A DNA stretch of 9,070 nucleotides from a virus. Lineage: Duplodnaviria > Heunggongvirae > Uroviricota > Caudoviricetes. The DNA is taken from the IMG/VR virus record IMGVR_UViG_2606217111_000011, one strand, 5' to 3'. The notes beneath the pieces were generated by a model. That model did not search any database. It was not told the origin of the DNA and saw only the letters and a list, made by a program, of their open reading frames with translations. Shown here in pieces: positions 16-9,070 of the stretch. Position 1 is the first letter of the stretch, and each line of letters opens with the position of its first letter. The position numbers and the translations under genes are program-made.

Positions 16-887
16 TCACCAACCGGCTGGGACATATCTCACACCTCCCGGAATCCCCGCTGAAGCCATCATTAATGCGGCATCATCCACCATGACATCC
101 GCCACATCCGCAGACGATAAAATATCGCCCCCTCCGTCCCCACCGAACCGGACGCCTCCGGCAAGTCCTGCCGCTTTCTGCATCAGCATTTTGTCCTCAT
201 CCGGCCTCTCCACCTGCTCTTCCTCATGCCGGGGGACAAGCAGACTGAAATCAGAGGGATGCATATCCGGATCGCAAAAAAACAGGCTGAGTACAGCGTA
301 CGTCAGCCCGGAAAAATGCATATCCAGCTGGGTATCCTGAAAATAATGCGTGCGGTAAAAACGGTGCCAGTCGGCATATTCGGTGGATGTCATCCCGGCA
401 AGCATGGTGCGCCAGTCGGGTCTCCCCATCTCACGCGCCAGTCTGAGGGCAAAGTTCAGCTCACCGTCGAAGACTTTCCCGCAGAAAAATCATCATCAGT
501 CAGCGTGTTATTTTTCGCCACTTCAGTAATATCAGTATCCGGACGAACAGCTTCGATCATCCCGGACAGACGCAACACCACGTCTTCCGCCCGGGCAATG
601 GCATCAGCAGGCCAGGTGGTGAGCACTTCCTGCTCTATCTTCATCACGGCCTCATTCATTGACGGTGACTGCGTTTTCTGTGGATGGTTATGCCACAGGG
701 ACATCGCCACCAGAAACGCGCCGGTTCTGACAAGATCTTCCACACTCACCTGCAGGTTGCCGCTGGCTTCAGCCTCTTCTGCCCGCCGTTTCAGGAGGGC
801 AAGATGCTCAATACGCTGCAGCGCAGACAGCTCAGAAAGCGTGACAGACACACCGTTATATTCAAATTGTTCTGTTTTCAGGAACAT
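16..887 (-). CDS. T: Tail assembly chaperone G-T fusion, made by -1 frameshift at 474-480 (T segment 16-477)
   Basis: The T frame has no ribosome-binding site or start of its own upstream of the frameshift site and is contiguous with G in the -1 frame. The T-segment translation (DWRTMLAGMTSTEYADWHRFY, LDMHFSGLTY, DPDMHP, LMQKAAGLAGGVRFG) matches recalled lambda gpT. Confidence 0.82.
456..887 (-). CDS. G: Tail assembly chaperone G
   Basis: 143 aa. Recalled lambda gpG blocks: MFLKTE-FE-NGV-VTLSELSALQRIEHLA, GAFLVAMSLWHNHPQKTQ-PSMNEAV, EQEVLTTWP. It ends just after the slippery heptamer. Confidence 0.9.
   Translation of the reverse strand: MFLKTEQFEYNGVSVTLSELSALQRIEHLALLKRRAEEAEASGNLQVSVEDLVRTGAFLVAMSLWHNHPQKTQSPSMNEAVMKIEQEVLTTWPADAIARAEDVVLRLSGMIEAVRPDTDITEVAKNNTLTDDDFSAGKSSTVS
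474..480 (-). promoter_or_regulatory. -1 programmed ribosomal frameshift slippery heptamer G GGA AAG (G to G-T)
   Basis: The minus-strand sequence GCG GGA AAG TCT lies 5 codons before the G stop. The -1 frame is open from this site (VFDGELNFALRLAREMGRPDWRTM...) down to the TGA at 16-18. This is the canonical lambda G/GT arrangement. Confidence 0.85.
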
Positions 888-905: not shown

Positions 906-1655
906 TTAGCCACCCGGCACATTATTAACGGTAATTTCAGCCACCGCAGCAAACTGACCATTACCGGAAATCACAGGGATCTGCACCTTACCTGTCGCCA
1001 CGCCGTTCACAGTAATTGTCATATCTTTCACACTAATGGTGGCTTTCGACGGATCGGCGGAAACCGCTCTGAACGTCTTGTCGGTTGCACTTTCCGGTTC
1101 AAAAGAAACCGTCAGGGTGGTTGTTTTCCCTTTTGCCACCGTACCGGATGTCGGCGTCACCTTAATCGCACTGACCGGCGTAATTTTGCTGCGTTCTTCC
1201 GCTACAGAAGGTTTACCCACGTTAGTGACTTTCACCGTGCGGGTGATCACTTCTTTCGCCGTCACGGCCTTACCGATACTGCTGACCCAGCCACGAAACA
1301 CATCCACCGTGCCATTCGGAAAACGGATTTTATAGGCCCGGACATCGCCGCTTTCAAACCAGCCTATAAGCCCTTTCTGGCCTTCCTCTCCCGGTTTCCA
1401 GGCCAGCGTAAAACTGGTATCACCTGCAGATTTCTGCCCCTGCCCGGTCGCGGTCCAGTCTGCGTCTTCATCATCCAGGTAGTTATCATCGTAGGATTCT
1501 GCCGTCATCTCGCCCGGCGTCAGATCCTTCACCTTAGCCAGTCGCTGCCAGTCATCGTCTGACAACGGGTTTGCATAAGCATCACCCTTGCCGTTGTAAA
1601 CCCACAGAGTGGTACCGGCACCTTTTACCGGCTCAAGAGGATTTGGTGTTGCCAT
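906..1655 (-). CDS. V: Major tail tube protein V with C-terminal Ig-like domain
   Basis: 249 aa. Recalled lambda gpV blocks: [112 protein letters not shown] ribosome-binding site before the ATG at 1653-1655. Confidence 0.93.
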
Positions 1656-1662
1656 ATCGTCC

Positions 1663-2058
1663 TCACATCTCGTATGTAATGGAATAAGTCAGATCTGCAG
1701 AGCTCCATAACGCCATATCGTCATCACGACGATACTCATAGCCCTGCGTAACCATCGTGGTAATCAGTCCAGCCAGTGCCGGGATCGCAGTCATCGCCGG
1801 ATAAATCCGGCTTTCCATCCACTGATCAAGCTCTGAATCCGGTACCTGTGCCGGTAAAAACACCTCAATATGCAGCGTGGCCCGCCAGGTATCTGCATCC
1901 AGCTCTTCACCGGTATACTCTGCATCCGTCAGATAAACCGCGATCGCAGGAAAATCCTCTTCGTCAAAAACAACGGGGCGACCATCAAACAGCGTCGCCC
2001 CGTGTTCATGCTGCTCGAGTGCATCCAGCACTGCAGCACGGATATCAGTGTGTTTCAT
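1663..2058 (-). CDS. U: Tail terminator protein U
   Basis: 131 aa, the same length as lambda gpU, with near-collinear recalled similarity ([71 protein letters not shown]). Confidence 0.92.
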
Positions 2059-2588
2059 CGTTTTATCGCAATCCTCAGTTGTTGTTTCAGCGCGGATGCC
2101 AGTTCTCCGGGCAGGCGTTCACGCCGGATACGGTCAACATTCTCATCAAACGCCTGTTTCAGTGGGGCCGCCATCGGGATTTTCACCACATCAATAGGGT
2201 AACGGTTTTTCCCGGCCACACGCTGCATAACATGCCAGCGCCCATTATTTAATCGCTGGATAAATGCCCGCTGATACCGATGCTGACCGGCTTTAAGTAT
2301 GCTGTTCGGACGACGGCCCAGCATCCTGATCCCCAGCTTAATCACTGGAAGATCACCGCGGTTAACGATAATTCTGGCATTCGGATTTCTGACCGTGGCC
2401 CGTTTCAGTCTGGACCGTTCCTTAACCAGTTTCCGGCGTACCTTTGTCTCCCGGGCAACCTGTGATGAAGACTGATTAATCGCCGTTGTGGCCACGCGGT
2501 TAATCGTCATTGCTGAAGCCGCCGGAATGGCGTTTTTACGAACCCGGCTCAGATTATCAATCGCCTGATCAAGCCCTTTTATCGCCAT
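2055..2588 (-). CDS. Z: Tail assembly/completion protein Z
   Basis: 177 aa. N- and C-terminal blocks recalled from lambda gpZ: MAIKGL, QVARETKVRRKLVKER-RLKRATV, NRGDLPVIKLG, NGRWHVMQRVAGKNRYPIDVVKIPMA, RIRRERLP. GGGGGA ribosome-binding site before the ATG at 2586-2588. Its TGA overlaps the U start in an ATGA arrangement. Confidence 0.9.
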   Translation of the reverse strand: MAIKGLDQAIDNLSRVRKNAIPAASAMTINRVATTAINQSSSQVARETKVRRKLVKERSRLKRATVRNPNARIIVNRGDLPVIKLGIRMLGRRPNSILKAGQHRYQRAFIQRLNNGRWHVMQRVAGKNRYPIDVVKIPMAAPLKQAFDENVDRIRRERLPGELASALKQQLRIAIKR

Positions 2589-2603
2589 AATTTCCCCCTG
2601 CGT

Positions 2604-2957
2604 TTATCGTCGCCGGTTAACAGCGGGTGGTTGCCCACGGTTGAGCCAGAGATAACAGCTTCCCCCGTCATCCGGAGAAACACGATCCACCCAGAACATC
2701 TCGCCGTTAATGGTCAGCGTGTCACCACGCCGCACGGCACGCACCGTATCCGTCCGCACAAATAATGACGGGCTGCTTCCTTCAATACGGACCCCGCCAC
2801 CGGCAAAACCCAGCGACTCCGGATCGTCAAAAACCCCCTGAACTTCGCCGCCACGTTGTGCTCCGGAGGTGAACTGCGCACGGATCCCCATCACTTCAAC
2901 AATCGTACTGTCCACCCCGGCAAGGGCGGCATCAAAGGCATTCTGAAAATCACGCAT
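2604..2957 (-). CDS. FII: Head-tail joining protein FII
   Basis: Motifs recalled from lambda gpFII: FDAA, GVFDDPE, GVRIEGSSPSLFVRTD, RRGDTLTI, FWVDRVSPDDGGSCYLWL, PPAVNRRR. I place the start at the ATG at 2955-2957 (MRDFQNAFDAA..., 117 aa, as in lambda) rather than the upstream ATG at 2993, which has no ribosome-binding site. Confidence 0.85.
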   Translation of the reverse strand: MRDFQNAFDAALAGVDSTIVEVMGIRAQFTSGAQRGGEVQGVFDDPESLGFAGGGVRIEGSSPSLFVRTDTVRAVRRGDTLTINGEMFWVDRVSPDDGGSCYLWLNRGQPPAVNRRR

Positions 2958-3160
2958 AAACAGCCATTCCACCATCAACGTGTGTTTTTGCATCTGAGGA
3001 CATAATCAGAATCACCCGACCAACATCCGCAAGCTCAACGGATTCCCCCGTTTCACCATCAACGCCACAGAGATGGAGGCAGGTCAGAACTCTGATGCGT
3101 TAACGCGCCGGATGTTTCCTCACCATTGAGCCGCGGTTTCCCGCTCCCGGATATCCATAT

Positions 3161-3366: not shown

Positions 3367-4395
3367 TTATTTCACCTGTACCACCACAAACTCATCCGGA
3401 TCCGGCAGCACCATCAGCGGCGCGGACTGCGTCATGGTGAATTCACAGGACGGATCGCCCACGGTCAGCCAGTGTTTCGGGTAACGGGAAGAAGCCACCA
3501 CTCCTTCAGATAACGCCTGTGCATCCTTAATGGCTCCATAGCAACGAATCCCCTCTGCTGCCGTATTCCCCAGCACCAGCGTGCCCTCCGGCAGATAACG
3601 TTTTTCGGTACCGTCCTCTGCCACATAAGACGTTTTCGCTACCACAATGGCCAGATCGCCGTAATACCCCTTGAAGGATACCACTGCGCCCAGATCTTTC
3701 ACTGCCGTTTCGAGTTGTGAATTTGAACCGCGACGGGTATCCAGTTTTTCGCGGAAAAGCTTAAAGCCATTCAGCAGACGCCAGACGGTACCGTCCATAA
3801 TGGCAATATTCACAAGACCACTGGCCTGATCACAGAAAAGGTCGATATCATATGTCGGGTCGAACGTGTCACGATCCTGTTTTGACCACTCCTTACCGCT
3901 ACCTTGTATGATGTTATTCTTCGTCGATCGGCCAAAATCGACTTCAATTTTCTCGAACTGGTCTCCTTCCATCGTATATTTGCCATACAGCACGGCATTC
4001 ACCGCCTGCATTTCTTCCACCTGGACAATAGCGTGCTCTTCCTGTTTGAGGTTATCGGTAATGATACGCAGACGACGGTAGGCCGGGTCGTTCAGCTGAG
4101 CCGGATCTTCACCAGGAAGGCGCTCAACCGCCTGCTGGTAATTAAATTCGTGTTTGGGCTTGACGTAGCCCGGACGTAACACGCGGGTTTCACCACCGCG
4201 ATGGCGAAGCACTTTTCCTTCAACGATCGGGGAGACATAGGCCGCCACCGGCGTTTTTCCGGTAATTTTGTCCAGCATCACCTCTTCGGTGTGGAAATTC
4301 ACCGTACGGCGGAAAAACAGCTCCAGAAACAGCGCACGGAATTTCACTTTTTGTTCGGTATAACCGAGTAACTGGCGGGTCGTAAACAATCCCAT
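3367..4395 (-). CDS. E: Major capsid protein (lambda gpE family)
   Basis: 342 aa; lambda gpE is 341 aa. Recalled conserved blocks: YVSPIV, PGYVKPKHE, DPAYRRLRII, VEEMQAV, GKYTM, LDTRRGSNS, LETAVKDLG, FTM-QSAPLM. ATG at 4393-4395 with AGGA upstream. Confidence 0.95.
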   Translation of the reverse strand: MGLFTTRQLLGYTEQKVKFRALFLELFFRRTVNFHTEEVMLDKITGKTPVAAYVSPIVEGKVLRHRGGETRVLRPGYVKPKHEFNYQQAVERLPGEDPAQLNDPAYRRLRIITDNLKQEEHAIVQVEEMQAVNAVLYGKYTMEGDQFEKIEVDFGRSTKNNIIQGSGKEWSKQDRDTFDPTYDIDLFCDQASGLVNIAIMDGTVWRLLNGFKLFREKLDTRRGSNSQLETAVKDLGAVVSFKGYYGDLAIVVAKTSYVAEDGTEKRYLPEGTLVLGNTAAEGIRCYGAIKDAQALSEGVVASSRYPKHWLTVGDPSCEFTMTQSAPLMVLPDPDEFVVVQVK

Positions 4396-4423
4396 AAATC
4401 AGTTCCTTTCATTAAGAAATCAG

Positions 4424-4445
4424 TCAGGCCAACGCGGTGGCCTGA
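4424..4445 (+). other. Dyad symmetry in the D-E intergenic region
   Basis: tcaggcc (4424-4430) pairs with ggcctga (4439-4445), giving a 7-bp stem and an 8-nt loop. It sits between the D stop (4453-4455) and the E ribosome-binding site and start (4393-4395). Confidence 0.5.
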
Positions 4446-4452
4446 TAACGTG

Positions 4453-4800
4453 TTACGGCAGCGCCGCGTGACTCAGGGCACTGCCGGTAAAGGCGTTGGC
4501 CTTTTTGTGTTCATCCACACTTTCAGGCCAGCGGATTGCCTCCGTCGCAAAGGTCCCCGACTTGTAATACGTCAGCACCGCCTCTGTGCCTTCAAGCGGC
4601 AGTACCAGTATGCCAACCGCACTACCGGCTTTCTGTCCGTCCCAGACCACCAGTTTCCCGGTGGCCCCATCCAGCATCAGGGGTGTCAGTGCTGGTGTTG
4701 CCGAGGAAATCCCGCTGCTGCCTGTGGCGGTGTGAGCCGGATCATTACCGGCAAAAATACGTACTTCCGCACGCTGTTCAGTGATGGTTTTCGTCACCAT
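4453..4800 (-). CDS. D: Head decoration protein
   Basis: 115 aa. Motifs recalled from lambda gpD: NDPAHTAT, TPLMLD, KLVVWDG, AVGILV, YKSGTF. ATG at 4798-4800. Confidence 0.9.
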   Translation of the reverse strand: MVTKTITEQRAEVRIFAGNDPAHTATGSSGISSATPALTPLMLDGATGKLVVWDGQKAGSAVGILVLPLEGTEAVLTYYKSGTFATEAIRWPESVDEHKKANAFTGSALSHAALP

Positions 4801-4836
4801 ATTGTTAAAACCTCGTATTGATGTTCAGCACTGACT

Positions 4837-5439
4837 TCATGGCATGGCCATGAGCATTTTCACGTCCGCATCACCGTCTTCTGACGCCTGTGACACGCCC
4901 CCCTGGACCGCAGCCGGTGAATGGTTCGCCATGAAATGTTCAAACAGGGCGGTTGTGGATGCAGAGACCGGTTCTGCCTTACCTGAGCCCGCAGCCAGCA
5001 CAGCCCGGGCGCTCTCCACGGTCATTCCCGGGCAGGCAGCCAGCTGTTCAGCCTGCGCCTCAGCCCCTTTTGCCTCATCCAGTGCCATGATCTGATCACG
5101 GAGTGATGGTCCGGCATTCGCCTGCGGTGAAGCAGCCAGGATCGGGCGGGCTTTTTCCACCGTCATCTCCGGCATCGCCGCCAGCGTTACTGCCAGTTGT
5201 TCACGACCGTTCGCTTCTTCACACGCCATAATGCGATCGGCTTCACTCTGCGCGGATGCCACCGGCTGCTGCGGTGCCGCCGCGGCCAGAATAGCCCGGG
5301 CCTGTTCAACGCTCATGCCCTGTTGCCCTGCCAGCATCGTGGCAAGCTGTTCACGTCCTTTCGCTTCCTGGCATGTCAGGATCCCCATCACTCGCTGGTT
5401 CTCCTGCACGGCGGCTTCCGTTGCAGTTAATTGCGGCAT
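4837..5439 (-). CDS. Nu3: Nested in-frame scaffolding protein (Nu3-like), sharing the C-terminal 200 codons of C
   Basis: An internal ATG at 5437-5439 (MPQLTATEA...) is preceded by a perfect GAGGAGG (complement of 5444-5450) with a 4-nt spacer. Its position corresponds to the recalled lambda Nu3 start (MTKETQ...) inside C. Confidence 0.7.
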   Translation of the reverse strand: MPQLTATEAAVQENQRVMGILTCQEAKGREQLATMLAGQQGMSVEQARAILAAAAPQQPVASAQSEADRIMACEEANGREQLAVTLAAMPEMTVEKARPILAASPQANAGPSLRDQIMALDEAKGAEAQAEQLAACPGMTVESARAVLAAGSGKAEPVSASTTALFEHFMANHSPAAVQGGVSQASEDGDADVKMLMAMP

Positions 5440-6342
5440 AGTGCCTCCTCTGACATTACTGTTCAGCGCCGTGGCCATCACACTGATGGCATCCGACGCA
5501 TTGATTAATTCATCCGCCAGCCCGGCCTCAATGCCGGACTGACCTTCAAAAACGGCGGCCTCTGTTCCCGTGACCGCATCCACAGACAACCCGGTATACA
5601 TCGCCACTTTTTCGGCAAACATCCGGTGCGCCGCATCAATCCGCTGCTGCATATCCTGGCGAACCTCTGCCGGCAACGCTTCAAACTGATTGCCATCCAC
5701 CTTGTGCGCCCCGGCATAAATCAGCGTGATATCCACACCGGCCTGCGCCAGATGACCGGCATAGCTGACATGGCTCATCATCACGCCAATGGAGCCGATA
5801 CGGGATGTCTGGGTAACCAGCCGTCGGGAGCAGGCCGACGCCAGCAGCATGGCTGCAGAACAGGCAGTGTCATTGCACAGTGCCCAGACCGGCTTCTGCT
5901 GACGGAGGCGGTAAATCATGTCAGCGCAGTCAAACGCGCCGGCGGCCTGCCCGCCCGGACTGTCAATGTCCAGCAGTATGCCCCGCACCTGGCTATCTGC
6001 CATTGCCTGCTGAAGACAGGCGACAATGCCGTCATAGCCAGTCATTCCGGAAAATGGCCGCATCCCCCCCAGCCGGTGCACCAGCGTGCCGCTCACCGGC
6101 AGTACCGCAATACCGTTCACCACCCGGTAAACACGGGCCGGTCGTTTACCTCCGGCCATGTACTCGTCCGTTTCAGCCAGCATTCCGGGAGCATCAAGCT
6201 GTACCTGCTGTTGTGGTACCGAAAGACTTGCTGCCCCCATCTCGCGCCCGAGCGCGCAAAAGAAAACCCGCGCATAGGCGGGCTCCAGAAGCAGCGGTTC
6301 ATTGAATGCTGCGGCAATAATGTGTGAAAGATTACGTCTCAC
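4837..6342 (-). CDS. C: Prohead maturation protease (S49/ClpP-like) with C-terminal scaffold domain
   Basis: 501-codon ORF. The N-terminal and central regions (NLSHIIAAAFNEPLLLEPAYARVFFCAL; GIAVLPVSGTL; PVWALCNDTACSAAMLLASACSRRLVTQTSRIGSIGVMM) match recalled lambda gpC. The start is a GTG at 6340-6342, 11 nt upstream of the portal stop, with AGGAG about 10 nt upstream; the exact start is uncertain. Confidence 0.88.
   Translation of the reverse strand: MRRNLSHIIAAAFNEPLLLEPAYARVFFCALGREMGAASLSVPQQQVQLDAPGMLAETDEYMAGGKRPARVYRVVNGIAVLPVSGTLVHRLGGMRPFSGMTGYDGIVACLQQAMADSQVRGILLDIDSPGGQAAGAFDCADMIYRLRQQKPVWALCNDTACSAAMLLASACSRRLVTQTSRIGSIGVMMSHVSYAGHLAQAGVDITLIYAGAHKVDGNQFEALPAEVRQDMQQRIDAAHRMFAEKVAMYTGLSVDAVTGTEAAVFEGQSGIEAGLADELINASDAISVMATALNSNVRGGTMPQLTATEAAVQENQRVMGILTCQEAKGREQLATMLAGQQGMSVEQARAILAAAAPQQPVASAQSEADRIMACEEANGREQLAVTLAAMPEMTVEKARPILAASPQANAGPSLRDQIMALDEAKGAEAQAEQLAACPGMTVESARAVLAAGSGKAEPVSASTTALFEHFMANHSPAAVQGGVSQASEDGDADVKMLMAMP
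4981..5388 (-). repeat. Three diverged tandem repeats of about 150 nt (47-50 aa) inside the C/Nu3 scaffold-coding region
   Basis: Protein-level units: CQEAKGREQLATMLAGQQGMSVEQARAILAA / CEEANGREQLAVTLAAMPEMTVEKARPILAA / LDEAKGAEAQAEQLAACPGMTVESARAVLAA. The DNA periodicity is visible on the plus strand, for example cagttgttcacgaccgttcgcttc near 5193 against caagctgttcacgtcctttcgcttc near 5343, and cagctgttcagcctgcgcctcagc near 5041. Confidence 0.8.
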
Positions 6343-7924
6343 GTGGTGTTGTCTCCTCTTCCGGCCTGCGACTCTCCGCTATCTGCTGCTGATACGCCTG
6401 CGCTATCCACACCGGACGTGAGAGTCCGGCTTTTTCCCGCTCTGCAGATTCCCTGACCTGCTGGCGGAAAATGTCCTGATAATCCTCGCCCATCAGCGCC
6501 AGCTCTTTCTCATACGTGCTCAGTCCGGCCTCAATGCGCATCACTGATTCCTGAACCTCCTTGAGCCCGTCAATGGCCATTCTTCCGGCACCAATCCACT
6601 CTGCCCGTGACCAGGCTGATCGCGCCTGATAAAAATCAAAACGTGCCCGTGGCGGACGAATAATCCCCCGAAGAAGTGCCTCTTCCAGCCAGCAGGAAAA
6701 CATCTGCGTGGCCAGCCGGGACGCAATAAATTTTCGCCGCCCCATAAAATAGCGCCACGACTCATTGGCGGATGCGCGGGCACTTGAGTAACTGACCTTC
6801 GAGTAATCACGGGACAACTGTTCGTAGGAAACGCCAAGACCGGCGGCGATATACCGCAGCAGCGCCTGTTCAAGCGCAGAAAATCCATTGTCTGAATCCT
6901 GCGCAGTCTGTAGTTTCAGATCATCACCGGGGAAAAGGTGCGGAATTTTGACACCGCCCAGTGTCACGTTATTCGTGTCATACCAGCTGGAAAACTTCTC
7001 CAGAATATTAATAAGCGGATTATCCTTCTGCTCCTGTGGCGCGCCGGCGATATATTCAAAGGCCTTTTCGGTATCAAGTTCACTTTCAATCGTCGCTGCA
7101 TACATCGCCTTCACTATGGCCGACTGAAGCTGTGTTGCCTGCAGGGAATCGAGCATCTTCAGCCGTTCCATGACGCTGTAAAACTGATTAGCCCCACGGG
7201 TCTGCCCGTCCTCCACCGGCTCGAAAATATGCAGCATGGCCGGACGCCCGGTGGGAAGTTCACGCGGGATCCGTTCCCATCGTCCACTACCAGAGAACGG
7301 AAAATCATCCTCACAGATATGGTACGCGACGGCACGGCCATATCGATCGACCTCCACACCGGCCCGCAGAAAACGGTTCCCCATACCGTGTCCAGGCGTG
7401 TCCACCCGTTTCGGACTCACGGCTTTAAAACGCGTACGGAATAACTGCGTGGTTTCCGTATCCCAGACCGGCTGCACAAAGATTTCGCCGTTAAACGCAT
7501 GAACGCCCACACCTTCACGGATAAATTCCGTGAACGTGCGTTTTCCTTCCACGTCGATCTCGCCAAACATCCCTTCGGCGTATTCCGACCAGGCCGCCTC
7601 CACCTCATCGACAAAGCTTTTTGCTGCGGTCTCCCGCATCCCCAGCCAGCGCCAGTTCGGACGGTAGCTGATCAGAAACATATGCCCGACAATGTGATCC
7701 TTATGCAGAGCCACCGCATTAGCCGCTATTCCGTTATTGCGCACCAGATCATCTGCCCGGGCATTCCCCAGACGCAACGCGGGCAGCAGGGCCGCATCGG
7801 CACTCTGCGCCGGTGGCAACCACTCAGCCATTTGCCCGCCAAATCCTGCACCGCCCCCGTTGTAGCTGAGACTCTCACGAAGCGGAACGCCGTTCACATC
7901 AATCAGGACAGGCGTTCGTTTCAT
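6332..7924 (-). CDS. B: Portal protein
   Basis: Long minus-strand ORF. I place the start at the ATG at 7922-7924 (MKRTPVLIDVNG...), which has a GGGAG ribosome-binding site about 7 nt upstream and overlaps the W stop, rather than the upstream GTG at 7954 used by the track. Conserved blocks recalled from lambda gpB: ARADDLVRNNG, HAFNGE, FEPVEDGQTRGANQFYSVME, AMYAATIESELDT, RYIAAGLGVSYEQLSR, GRMAIDGLKEVQE. Confidence 0.93.
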   Translation of the reverse strand: MKRTPVLIDVNGVPLRESLSYNGGGAGFGGQMAEWLPPAQSADAALLPALRLGNARADDLVRNNGIAANAVALHKDHIVGHMFLISYRPNWRWLGMRETAAKSFVDEVEAAWSEYAEGMFGEIDVEGKRTFTEFIREGVGVHAFNGEIFVQPVWDTETTQLFRTRFKAVSPKRVDTPGHGMGNRFLRAGVEVDRYGRAVAYHICEDDFPFSGSGRWERIPRELPTGRPAMLHIFEPVEDGQTRGANQFYSVMERLKMLDSLQATQLQSAIVKAMYAATIESELDTEKAFEYIAGAPQEQKDNPLINILEKFSSWYDTNNVTLGGVKIPHLFPGDDLKLQTAQDSDNGFSALEQALLRYIAAGLGVSYEQLSRDYSKVSYSSARASANESWRYFMGRRKFIASRLATQMFSCWLEEALLRGIIRPPRARFDFYQARSAWSRAEWIGAGRMAIDGLKEVQESVMRIEAGLSTYEKELALMGEDYQDIFRQQVRESAEREKAGLSRPVWIAQAYQQQIAESRRPEEETTPRET

Positions 7925-8127
7925 AACCTCACTCCCAGCGGACGACGGCGACACCGGGTTGTCCCCAGTACCGACTCCGCATCATTGATCGCACGGTTAA
8001 GCTCATCCAGAGAAGCCGCCGTATATTCAATTCTGCGACCATCTTTCTGGACAGACACCACCCGTTTACCGGTTAATAAATCAAGGCGCGCCTGACGCAG
8101 CGCCTGCAGTTCAGCGACTGTAACCAT
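7921..8127 (-). CDS. W: Head completion / head-tail joining protein W
   Basis: 68 aa, the same length as lambda gpW, with a recalled similar motif (LLTGKRVVSVQKDGRRIEYTAASL). ATG at 8125-8127 is preceded by GGAGGAG. Its TGA stop overlaps the portal ATG in an ATGA arrangement at 7921-7924. Confidence 0.9.
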   Translation of the reverse strand: MVTVAELQALRQARLDLLTGKRVVSVQKDGRRIEYTAASLDELNRAINDAESVLGTTRCRRRPLGVRL

Positions 8128-9070
8128 TCACTCCTCCGGACAGCTTCGCTGCCAGTTCTTTAAGGGTTGGCCGGGTCGTCTCTTCTTCCCGGGATTTTGC
8201 CAGTACAGCCAGATCAAGCTGCCAGCGTTGCACGGACACACGTAATGCCGCGTAGGCATACACCAGGCAGTCCAGCGCTTCGTTACGCCGCTTTTTGTTA
8301 TCCCACAGCAGACGCATCTTTCCTTTTTCCCACTTCTCCACAAGCTCTTCCGCGACCAGTTGCTGCGCCTCTGTCTGCGAAAAAATCTCCGGATCATCAG
8401 GAAAACGGATAGCATACGACGTGGCTTCATCCACAGGCGTGGGATCGGCTTTCATACGGGCATAGAGAATTTCTTTTGCGGTGTCCGTCCCCACTTCACA
8501 CAGATACACGCCCCGCTGATTGCGGGTTTTTGGCATGGTGATCACCGGCTTGCCATAGACAGATGCGCCTTTTACCGGCAGCACCCGGAAAACACCGTGT
8601 TTTTTTGACCTCTGATAAACGATTTCGCCATCGATCCCCCCGATGTCCCAGCAGACACGGGAAATGGTCATTTCGGTTCCGTCTGCATGGCGGTATTTTT
8701 TGTTGATCGCCGCATCCACACGTAACAGCGTCTCTTCCTCATCGGGACGCCCCATAATGATGATTTTATCCACCAGAAAGGCTTCCTCTCCCGGAGCCCA
8801 TCCCCAGACATACATCTCAAAACGGTTTCGCTGCGAGTCAATGCCCGCCGTCAGATAAACCACCCGGGCAGGCACCGCCGCCGTGTAACGCACAACCTTA
8901 TCCATCAGCACCTGGTGATCGAGTTTTTCGCCCACAGCCTCTTCCCAGGTCTCGCCCAGCGTGGTGTTCACAAAGGTTTTCAGGCCGTTGGGATCTTTCA
9001 GTGCATCCAGCCAGTCATAGACAATCTGTACCCAGGTGGTGAACGGACTGTACGCCGTCCAGATATGGAA
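8111..9070 (-). CDS. A: Terminase large subunit, C-terminal part (gene continues beyond the window end)
   Basis: Minus-strand frame is open from 9070 down to the TGA at 8111-8113. Translation (FHIWTAYSPFTTWVQIVYDWL...FVNTTLGETWEE...VYLTAGIDSQ...ILWDNKKRRNEALDC...) matches my recollection of the lambda gpA C-terminal region. The M at 8971 in the ORF track is an internal GTG, not the true start. Confidence 0.9.
   Translation of the reverse strand, partial: FHIWTAYSPFTTWVQIVYDWLDALKDPNGLKTFVNTTLGETWEEAVGEKLDHQVLMDKVVRYTAAVPARVVYLTAGIDSQRNRFEMYVWGWAPGEEAFLVDKIIIMGRPDEEETLLRVDAAINKKYRHADGTEMTISRVCWDIGGIDGEIVYQRSKKHGVFRVLPVKGASVYGKPVITMPKTRNQRGVYLCEVGTDTAKEILYARMKADPTPVDEATSYAIRFPDDPEIFSQTEAQQLVAEELVEKWEKGKMRLLWDNKKRRNEALDCLVYAYAALRVSVQRWQLDLAVLAKSREEETTRPTLKELAAKLSGGVNGYSR

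Follow-up and report, generated by a model that had tools for sequence, protein, structure and literature searches.

The window (the whole stretch of DNA analysed, 9,070 nucleotides) contains a threefold repeat, in the 3' third of a protease/scaffold fusion gene. Judged by sequence, this is the known Tri1/Tri/Tri3 triplication of phage 21 gene 6. Furthermore, the triplication is normal for the prophage head module in question, which is very common.

Gene content of the window

The list of open reading frames identifies the window as a lambda-like head and tail module, encoded on the minus strand. Head-completion and tail genes come after the major capsid protein gene. The upstream genes are as follows:

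8111-8971, minus strand: large terminase gene, 3' part (ORF list)
7921-8127, minus strand: gpW-like gene (ORF list)
6332-7954, minus strand: portal gene (ORF list)
4837..6342, minus strand: protease/scaffold fusion gene, 501 aa, GTG start, homologous to lambda C and corresponding to phage 21 gene 5
5464..5907, minus strand: S49 (SppA-like) serine protease domain, aa 146-293, best stretch for Pfam PF01343
4453-4800, minus strand: decoration protein gene (SHP), 115 aa (ORF list)
3367-4395, minus strand: major capsid protein gene, 342 aa (ORF list)

The order terminase, W, portal, gp5/gp6, SHP (115 aa), and major capsid protein (342 aa) was found using three sources: the window ORFs, loci encoding a protein identical to the 501 aa protein of the window (which carry matching Pfam labels), and the phage 21 annotation.

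The 501 aa protein matches Peptidase_S49 (PF01343, aa 146-293) with an E value of 1.3e-35, above the gathering score. It also matches the head maturation protease family PHROG 53 (E = 5.9e-228). When solved structures were searched by sequence, aa 77-290 matched crystal structures of SppA (3rst and 4kwb, E = 1e-16). The protease domain alone was matched in this search, and no solved structure was matched by the scaffold part. By homology, the gene is a protease-scaffold gene of the lambda C/Nu3 type.

Two other features of the window should be mentioned. First, the C/gp5 gene, from its GTG start, shares 11 nt with the end of the portal gene (window 6332-6342). Phage 21 and lambda show this overlap too, and the arrangement is consistent with translational coupling. 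Second, a slippery heptamer, GGGAAAG, is found at window 474-480 (minus strand), just upstream of the stop codon of a G-like tail chaperone ORF (456-887). A T-like ORF (16-429) comes after the G-like ORF. The heptamer is expected to be a lambda-type G/GT -1 programmed frameshift site; note that one GGGAAAG match, taken alone, is not above chance.

Three repeat units in the scaffold part of the gene

The repeat units, and the tail that follows them, are located as follows:

5272..5403, minus strand: repeat unit 1, aa 314-357, ENQRVMGILTCQEAKGREQLATMLAGQQGMSVEQARAILAAAAP (HMM i-Evalue 9e-26)
5119..5247, minus strand: repeat unit 2, aa 366-408, SEADRIMACEEANGREQLAVTLAAMPEMTVEKARPILAASPQA (HMM i-Evalue 1e-28)
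4978..5103, minus strand: repeat unit 3, aa 414-455, LRDQIMALDEAKGAEAQAEQLAACPGMTVESARAVLAAGSGK (HMM i-Evalue 6e-27)
4840..4977, minus strand: acidic C-terminal tail, aa 456-501, with 6 acidic residues and 1 basic residue

Successive units are spaced by 49-50 aa and then by 47 aa. A first-pass annotation, made from the sequence alone, had placed three consecutive units at 4981-5388. The intervals given here (5403-5272, 5247-5119, and 5103-4978) fit that description. The motif originally proposed, C-x-EA-x-G-x-E-Q-L-A ... G-M-T-V-E-x-A-R-x-I-L-A-A, is also correct.

At the protein level, the similarity between units is strong. Pairwise Smith-Waterman scores were 86-101, compared with 24-26 +/- 5 for 2000 shuffles (z = 11.5-16.4), and none of the 2000 shuffles reached the observed score. 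A unit HMM found exactly three matches in the 501 aa protein (78-87 bits, i-Evalues 1e-24 to 1e-27). Similarly, PHROG scaffold profiles 8399 and 17040 identified three matching stretches in the 200 aa scaffold part. In the DNA, the repeat is faint: codon-aligned units are 55-63% identical and share exact runs of at most 8-9 nt. TRF did not pick up a tandem repeat of this period. When the unit region was autocorrelated in frame, the peak was at an offset of 150 nt, with a value of 0.453 (in 500 codon shuffles, the mean maximum was 0.371 and the highest 0.440). The first-pass description of the repeat is therefore correct. Since the DNA repeat is faint, and the protein repeat strong, we conclude that this is a protein-level repeat.

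All three units match the consensus of the Nu3-type scaffold unit, I-x4-EA-x-GRE-x2-A-x2-LA-x4-M-x4-A(K/R)-x2-L. Note that this is an uncurated family (PHROGs 8399/8940/17040), and neither Pfam nor NCBIfam has a model covering the unit. Members occur from Escherichia to Xylella and Aeromonas phages. Using 150 units from 141 representatives, we derived the family consensus RxRILxCxEAKGRExLAxxLAxxPGMTVExA(K/R)xILAAAP. Conservation in the family profile is 92% or higher at positions I4, E9, A10, G12, R13, A17, L20, A21, A31, and L35, and ~85% at E14 and M26. Unit 3 has no Arg at profile position 13, which is 93% conserved across the family.

Unit 3 also contains a weak Pfam helix-hairpin-helix match (aa 427-450, window 4993-5064), where LAACPGMTVESARAVLAA resembles an HhH motif. 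We rejected kinship with the HHH family (PF00633). The E value was 0.095, the score was 13 bits against a cut-off of 24, and the units are net neutral to acidic. Foldseek matches to the HhH regions of RecR and RuvA were not significant.

The units coincide with the Tri boxes of phage 21

A 724-nt segment of the window aligns, at 97.5% identity and without gaps, to GenBank entry M81255.1 ("Bacteriophage 21 head gene operon"). In gene 6 of that entry, three repeat_regions are annotated: "Tri1 box" (5542-5645), "Tri box" (5682-5792), and "Tri3 box" (5823-5936). Their label reads "function unknown; putative". We placed the boxes on the window through the ungapped alignment:

5269-5372, minus strand: Tri1 box, within unit 1 (mapped from M81255.1)
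5122-5232, minus strand: Tri box, within unit 2 (mapped from M81255.1)
4978-5091, minus strand: Tri3 box, within unit 3 (mapped from M81255.1)

The mapped boxes coincide with the three units, which were found independently, and do not fall elsewhere. Since the Tri boxes are the three units, and occupy the reported interval, the feature had already been described and annotated. The first-pass annotation had implied that the triplication was novel, and this does not hold. Our search of the open-access literature found no text discussing the Tri boxes or the Nu3 start.

Phage 21 (M81255.1 and OL657228.1) resembles the window in its gene 6 start and ribosome binding site, its 200 aa scaffold, and the positions of the three repeats. 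The neighbouring genes are also alike, and encode a portal, a 115 aa SHP decoration protein, and a 342 aa major capsid protein. Annotated as the head-tail preconnector, phage 21 gp5 differs from the protein of the window by only fifteen amino-acid substitutions (486 of 501 residues are identical, 97% protein identity); gp6 is annotated as the scaffold. Unlike phage 21, the window carries a prophage-type allele. In OL657228.1, the depositors have marked two 'CII binding site' matches inside gene 6 (locus 2314-2327 and 2548-2561). Both lie on the opposite strand and are no more than matches to the pattern ttgynnnnnnttgy.

A putative internal start for the scaffold

The repeats lie within a predicted nested gene:

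4837..5439, minus strand: predicted scaffold gene, nested and in frame, encoding 200 aa from Met302; it corresponds to phage 21 gene 6 and is an analogue of lambda Nu3
5444..5450, minus strand: internal Shine-Dalgarno sequence GAGGAGG, upstream of the nested ATG at a spacing of 4 nt (from sequence)

The nested ATG, at 5439, is the gene 6 start of M81255.1 (5475..6077) and the start of CPT_21_06 in OL657228.1. The GAGGAGG sequence, encoded by conserved Gly-Gly codons, is marked as the putative ribosome binding site for gene 6 in both entries. The arrangement GGAGG-N4-ATG is kept in lambda, 434, phage 21, D2, and Gifsy-1. This supports an in-frame internal start, annotated as putative, that would yield a scaffold sharing its C-terminus with the protease. 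From the conserved ATG, the scaffold is 131 aa in lambda and 434 (from Met309), 197 aa in Gifsy-1, and 200 aa in the window. The first-pass annotation had put the nested scaffold at about 200 aa rather than about 130. This agrees with our result because the conserved GGAGG-N4-ATG gives 200 aa and 131 aa, respectively.

The conserved ATG of lambda is at position 5342 of NC_001416. In RefSeq, lambda nu3 is instead annotated from an upstream ATG at 5132 (5132..5737) and encodes 201 aa. Hence, the RefSeq nu3 start and the phage 21 gene 6 start disagree on which start is homologous. A scaffold function for lambda Nu3-type proteins comes from data for lambda (PMC3224144). For the protein of the window we infer, by homology only, the same role in capsid protein polymerisation, followed by removal by the protease.

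Selection acts on the protein

All three units are under purifying selection. Comparing the window with PhiR5_1, dN/dS was 0.10, 0.31, and 0.17 for units 1, 2, and 3, respectively. The protease region (aa 1-295) is alike, with a value of 0.15. Between paralogous units, the same codon is used at only 7-8 of the 18-22 amino acids in common. The repeat region contains no promoter-like site, inverted repeat, or Rfam family. The only terminator-like matches, of which there are two, are downstream of the repeat region in the neighbouring gene. The repeat is maintained for the protein and not the DNA.

These data bear on the possibility that the boxes are repeated binding sites, or a structured RNA, in the late operon, with the protein repeat a by-product. 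The original annotation does speak of 'boxes', and the CPT annotation of phage 21 marks the two CII-site pattern matches inside gene 6. Even so, we find this reading scarcely credible. DNA identity is 55-63% with exact runs of 9 nt or fewer, TRF finds no repeat with the unit period, and synonymous positions are randomised between units. Promoter-like and terminator-like sites, inverted repeats, and Rfam matches are all missing from the repeat region, and conservation tracks the amino-acid pattern across distant phages.

Note that, in the comparison with PhiR5_1 (window 4978-5247), dS is 0.10 for unit 2 and climbs to 0.87 for unit 3. A jump of this kind suggests that a mosaic breakpoint lies between units 2 and 3, with the 3' part apparently drawn from a more distant lineage. 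The C gene of D2 (OM475427.1, locus 1486-3000) is also mosaic. Residues 1 to ~110 are lambda-like and the remainder, including the three units, is phage 21-like. Hence, a recombination joint lies within the protease domain.

Unit number across the family

The lambda C/Nu3 gene (NC_001416, 4418..5737) has the same layout as the gene of the window: an S49 protease domain and a nested, in-frame scaffold with a common C-terminus. Overall, the two proteins are 58% identical (439 aa in lambda versus 501 aa in the window). However, the C proteins of lambda and 434 have one unit each, while the window has three. Both alignment and the unit HMM confirm the single unit in lambda C, as the first-pass annotation had stated. 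The lambda unit is 59-63% identical to units 1 and 2 of the window (59% to unit 1). An insertion of 3 residues is common to unit 1 (VMG, within VMGILTC) and lambda (IMG), and is missing from units 2 and 3. In lambda, the unit is preceded by a Ser/Thr/Ala-rich linker 36 residues longer than that of the window. It is followed by a 39 aa tail unrelated to the acidic tail of the window; comparison of the two tails gave no significant similarity. We considered whether the lambda tail (DRLMQGAPAPLAAGNPA..., which MAFFT aligned to unit 2) might be a vestigial second unit. This was rejected, with Smith-Waterman z = 0.4-1.2, relative to shuffles, for all candidate segments.

A different picture emerged for the gpC homologue of Gifsy-1 in Salmonella (STM2605.Gifsy1, 498 aa), which is ~65% identical to the protein of the window. 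Gifsy-1 has three units, whose order and register match those of the window, along with an equivalent nested Shine-Dalgarno sequence and ATG yielding 197 aa. The tail and linkers have diverged from those of the window. Compared by position, units 1, 2, and 3 of the window and Gifsy-1 are 77, 78, and 59% identical, whereas paralogous units are 41-56% identical. Given this position-wise orthology, the triplication arose before the lineages of phage 21 and Gifsy-1 diverged. Together with the low DNA identity between units, it bears out the earlier proposal that the expansion is not recent.

To place these examples in the wider family, the unit profile was searched against 1.84 billion representatives clustered at 50% identity, with a cut-off of E <= 1e-3. 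The search returned 462 proteins. Among the best 150 of these, 136 have one unit, 10 have two, and four have three. More than one unit was present in only 2 of 65 S49-fused representatives. We conclude, from these two counts, that one unit is the family norm and that three units are specific to the 21/Gifsy lineage. Hence, lambda Nu3 and its relatives do not uniformly carry three units, which the first-pass annotation had named as the outcome that would make the triplication unremarkable.

Within E. coli, the triplication is frequent. Of 5,426 complete genomes, ~1,860-1,870 (about a third) matched the segment and 1,812 had an intact unit 2. The exact 501 aa protein of the window was found in 4,212 blocks of the assembly collection. 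Since the triplication is annotated in phage 21, and occurs in about a third of complete E. coli genomes, it is ordinary in this setting.

The stronger resemblance between orthologous than paralogous units raises the possibility that the units have diverged to bind different partners (capsid protein, portal, protease, or scaffold), so that the array serves as an adaptor. Unit 1 alone keeps the lambda-like VMG insertion, while unit 3 is without the 93%-conserved Arg13 and evolves faster. Lambda Nu3 has several reported partners: E, B, C, and itself (PMC3224144). Conversely, the core consensus is common to all three units and fusions of units 1 and 2 are frequent in nature (see below). On balance, we consider such a division of labour improbable.

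Natural alleles with different unit numbers

We next surveyed the 120 closest homologues of the protein of the window. Four kinds of variant allele were apparent:

451/452 aa allele: in-register deletion of 49-50 aa that fuses units 1 and 2 (2 units), with at least three junction registers
482 aa allele: second half of unit 2 removed by a 57-nt deletion (window 5140-5196), which lies between two CTGGCGGC microhomologies
551 aa allele (4 units): duplication of 150 nt, joined within ATGACnGTGGA, in two sequences from draft contigs
657 aa allele: 468-nt duplication, in complete genome CP007136.1 (locus 4001-5974)

Unit 2 is therefore the site of both the common 57-nt deletion and the 150-nt in-register deletions. 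Since the 451/452 aa alleles have at least three different junction registers, they result from independent events. For the 551 aa allele, DNA was inspected for one of the two sequences, and its junction contains an N. The in-frame duplication in the 657 aa allele starts at the end of the protease domain, extends into unit 3, and gives six unit matches; it is possibly an assembly artefact. The 482 aa allele (KE700344.1, locus 4001-5449) is about as widespread in assemblies as the full allele, with the exact protein in 3,592 collection blocks compared with 4,212. It may mark non-inducible or unsampled prophage lineages.

The first-pass annotation had proposed that the tandem DNA repeats are a substrate for copy-number change by recombination. 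Copy number does change, since alleles with 2, ~2.6, 4, and more units exist. However, DNA alignments place the junctions at microhomologies of 5-11 nt, rather than in long homologous tracts. The comparison of unit number among related lambdoid prophages, suggested at the same time, showed that copy number varies among near-identical E. coli genes; lambda and 434 have one unit and Gifsy-1 has three.

All variant alleles are in otherwise intact head modules, beside E proteins of 342 aa. One 2-unit allele adjoins a major capsid protein identical to that of the window at 341 of 342 residues. For the other variants, 326-329 of 342 residues are identical. An effect of repeat number on capsid size, raised as a possibility in the first-pass annotation, is thus not borne out. 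Because alleles with 2 or ~2.6 units are common beside near-identical capsid genes, a strict need for three units is doubtful.

Perhaps, then, one module suffices, as it does in lambda. The extra two would be tolerated duplicates or spacers, whose number drifts while assembly is unaffected. Lambda and most relatives do work with one unit, and the alleles with 2 units, a truncated unit 2, 4 units, or the 468-nt duplication all sit beside intact head genes (E identical at 326-341 of 342 residues). Nevertheless, there is purifying selection on all three units (dN/dS 0.10-0.31), and Gifsy-1 has retained the units position by position at 65% overall identity. Furthermore, the 3-unit form is present in each of the 19 records from isolated phages with full coverage of the query, and alleles with 2 or ~2.6 units were found in bacterial genomes only. 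Close homologues also include singleton in-frame deletions within the protease domain. Given the 19 phage records, and these protease-domain deletions, some variant alleles may belong to defective or decaying prophages. Overall, we think redundancy unlikely, while still the most serious of the alternatives.

The same alleles, with 2, ~2.6, 3, 4, and more units beside a capsid protein that hardly varies, could also be read as a series, within one phage 21-type head lineage, in which valency measurably tunes assembly and recurrent in-register gains and losses reflect selection instead of decay. We regard this as rather doubtful. If true, scaffold valency would tune assembly fidelity, kinetics, portal incorporation, or protease loading.

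A proposed model for a trivalent scaffold

To consider what the units might do, we used a single-sequence AF2 model of the 200 aa scaffold. Each unit is predicted to form a long helix, a loop (around P-G-M-T), and a helix of 9-11 residues. Confidence is moderate for the units, with pLDDT of 70-85 (74-85 for unit 1), and falls below 50 in the linkers and the last 25 residues. Within the tail (pLDDT 38-57), a short helix is predicted at scaffold residues 160-172. The pTM was 0.30. The model suggests that the units may be independent modules on a flexible string. Foldseek comparison of the model with the PDB and BFVD (viral models) found no match at E <= 0.001. This says little, because the global model is of low confidence.

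Lambda Nu3 is reported to interact with E, B, C, and itself (PMC3224144). In other scaffolds, helical or helix-turn-helix C-terminal motifs bind coat protein (PMC11565965). By analogy, we infer that the unit is an assembly module of Nu3-type scaffolds, most likely one that contacts the capsid protein.

Our working model has several steps. The 3' third of the gene would also be translated alone, from the internal GGAGG-ATG, to give the 200 aa scaffold. This would consist of three tandem helix-loop-helix modules of ~42 aa, with short, flexible linkers rich in Pro, Gln, and Ala, and then the acidic tail. The three copies are the product of ancient in-frame tandem duplication, and selection on protein, rather than DNA, keeps them. 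The module is probably the only conserved, folded-looking element of Nu3-type scaffolds. Inside the procapsid, each copy would dock on the major capsid protein E or mediate self-association of the scaffold, and a single chain of the phage 21 type would be trivalent, making three contacts in cis. At the C-terminus of the full-length protease (gp5), the modules would tether the protease inside the procapsid. Rare slippage, at microhomologies of 5-11 nt between units, would lead to the loss or gain of units. Taken as a whole, the known Tri box triplication, combined with trivalent capsid binding or self-association, is in our judgement the probable explanation, held with some reserve.

As a discovery, the repeat has little weight. 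The triplication was annotated decades ago and is standard in a head module that is among the most common in E. coli prophages. What is new here is descriptive, and comprises the survey of natural alleles that differ in unit number and the result that, in the wider family, a single unit is the norm. The natural alleles with 2, 2.6, 3, and 4 units could be a means to probe how module number per chain affects lambda-like procapsid assembly.

Comparison with other scaffolding proteins

No sequence or fold match of the units to coat-binding domains of the P22 type was detected. In general form, the P22 scaffolding protein does resemble the predicted unit: toward its C-terminus, in a helical scaffold that is mostly disordered, lies a short helix-loop-helix proposed to contact coat protein (PMC11565965). 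The scaffolds of phi29, SPP1, and 80-alpha have helical coat-binding ends, and the principle may be likened to that of the predicted units. There is also a difference. P22 has one such domain per chain and becomes multivalent by oligomerising. In the window, three units are covalently linked, and are also fused to the protease.
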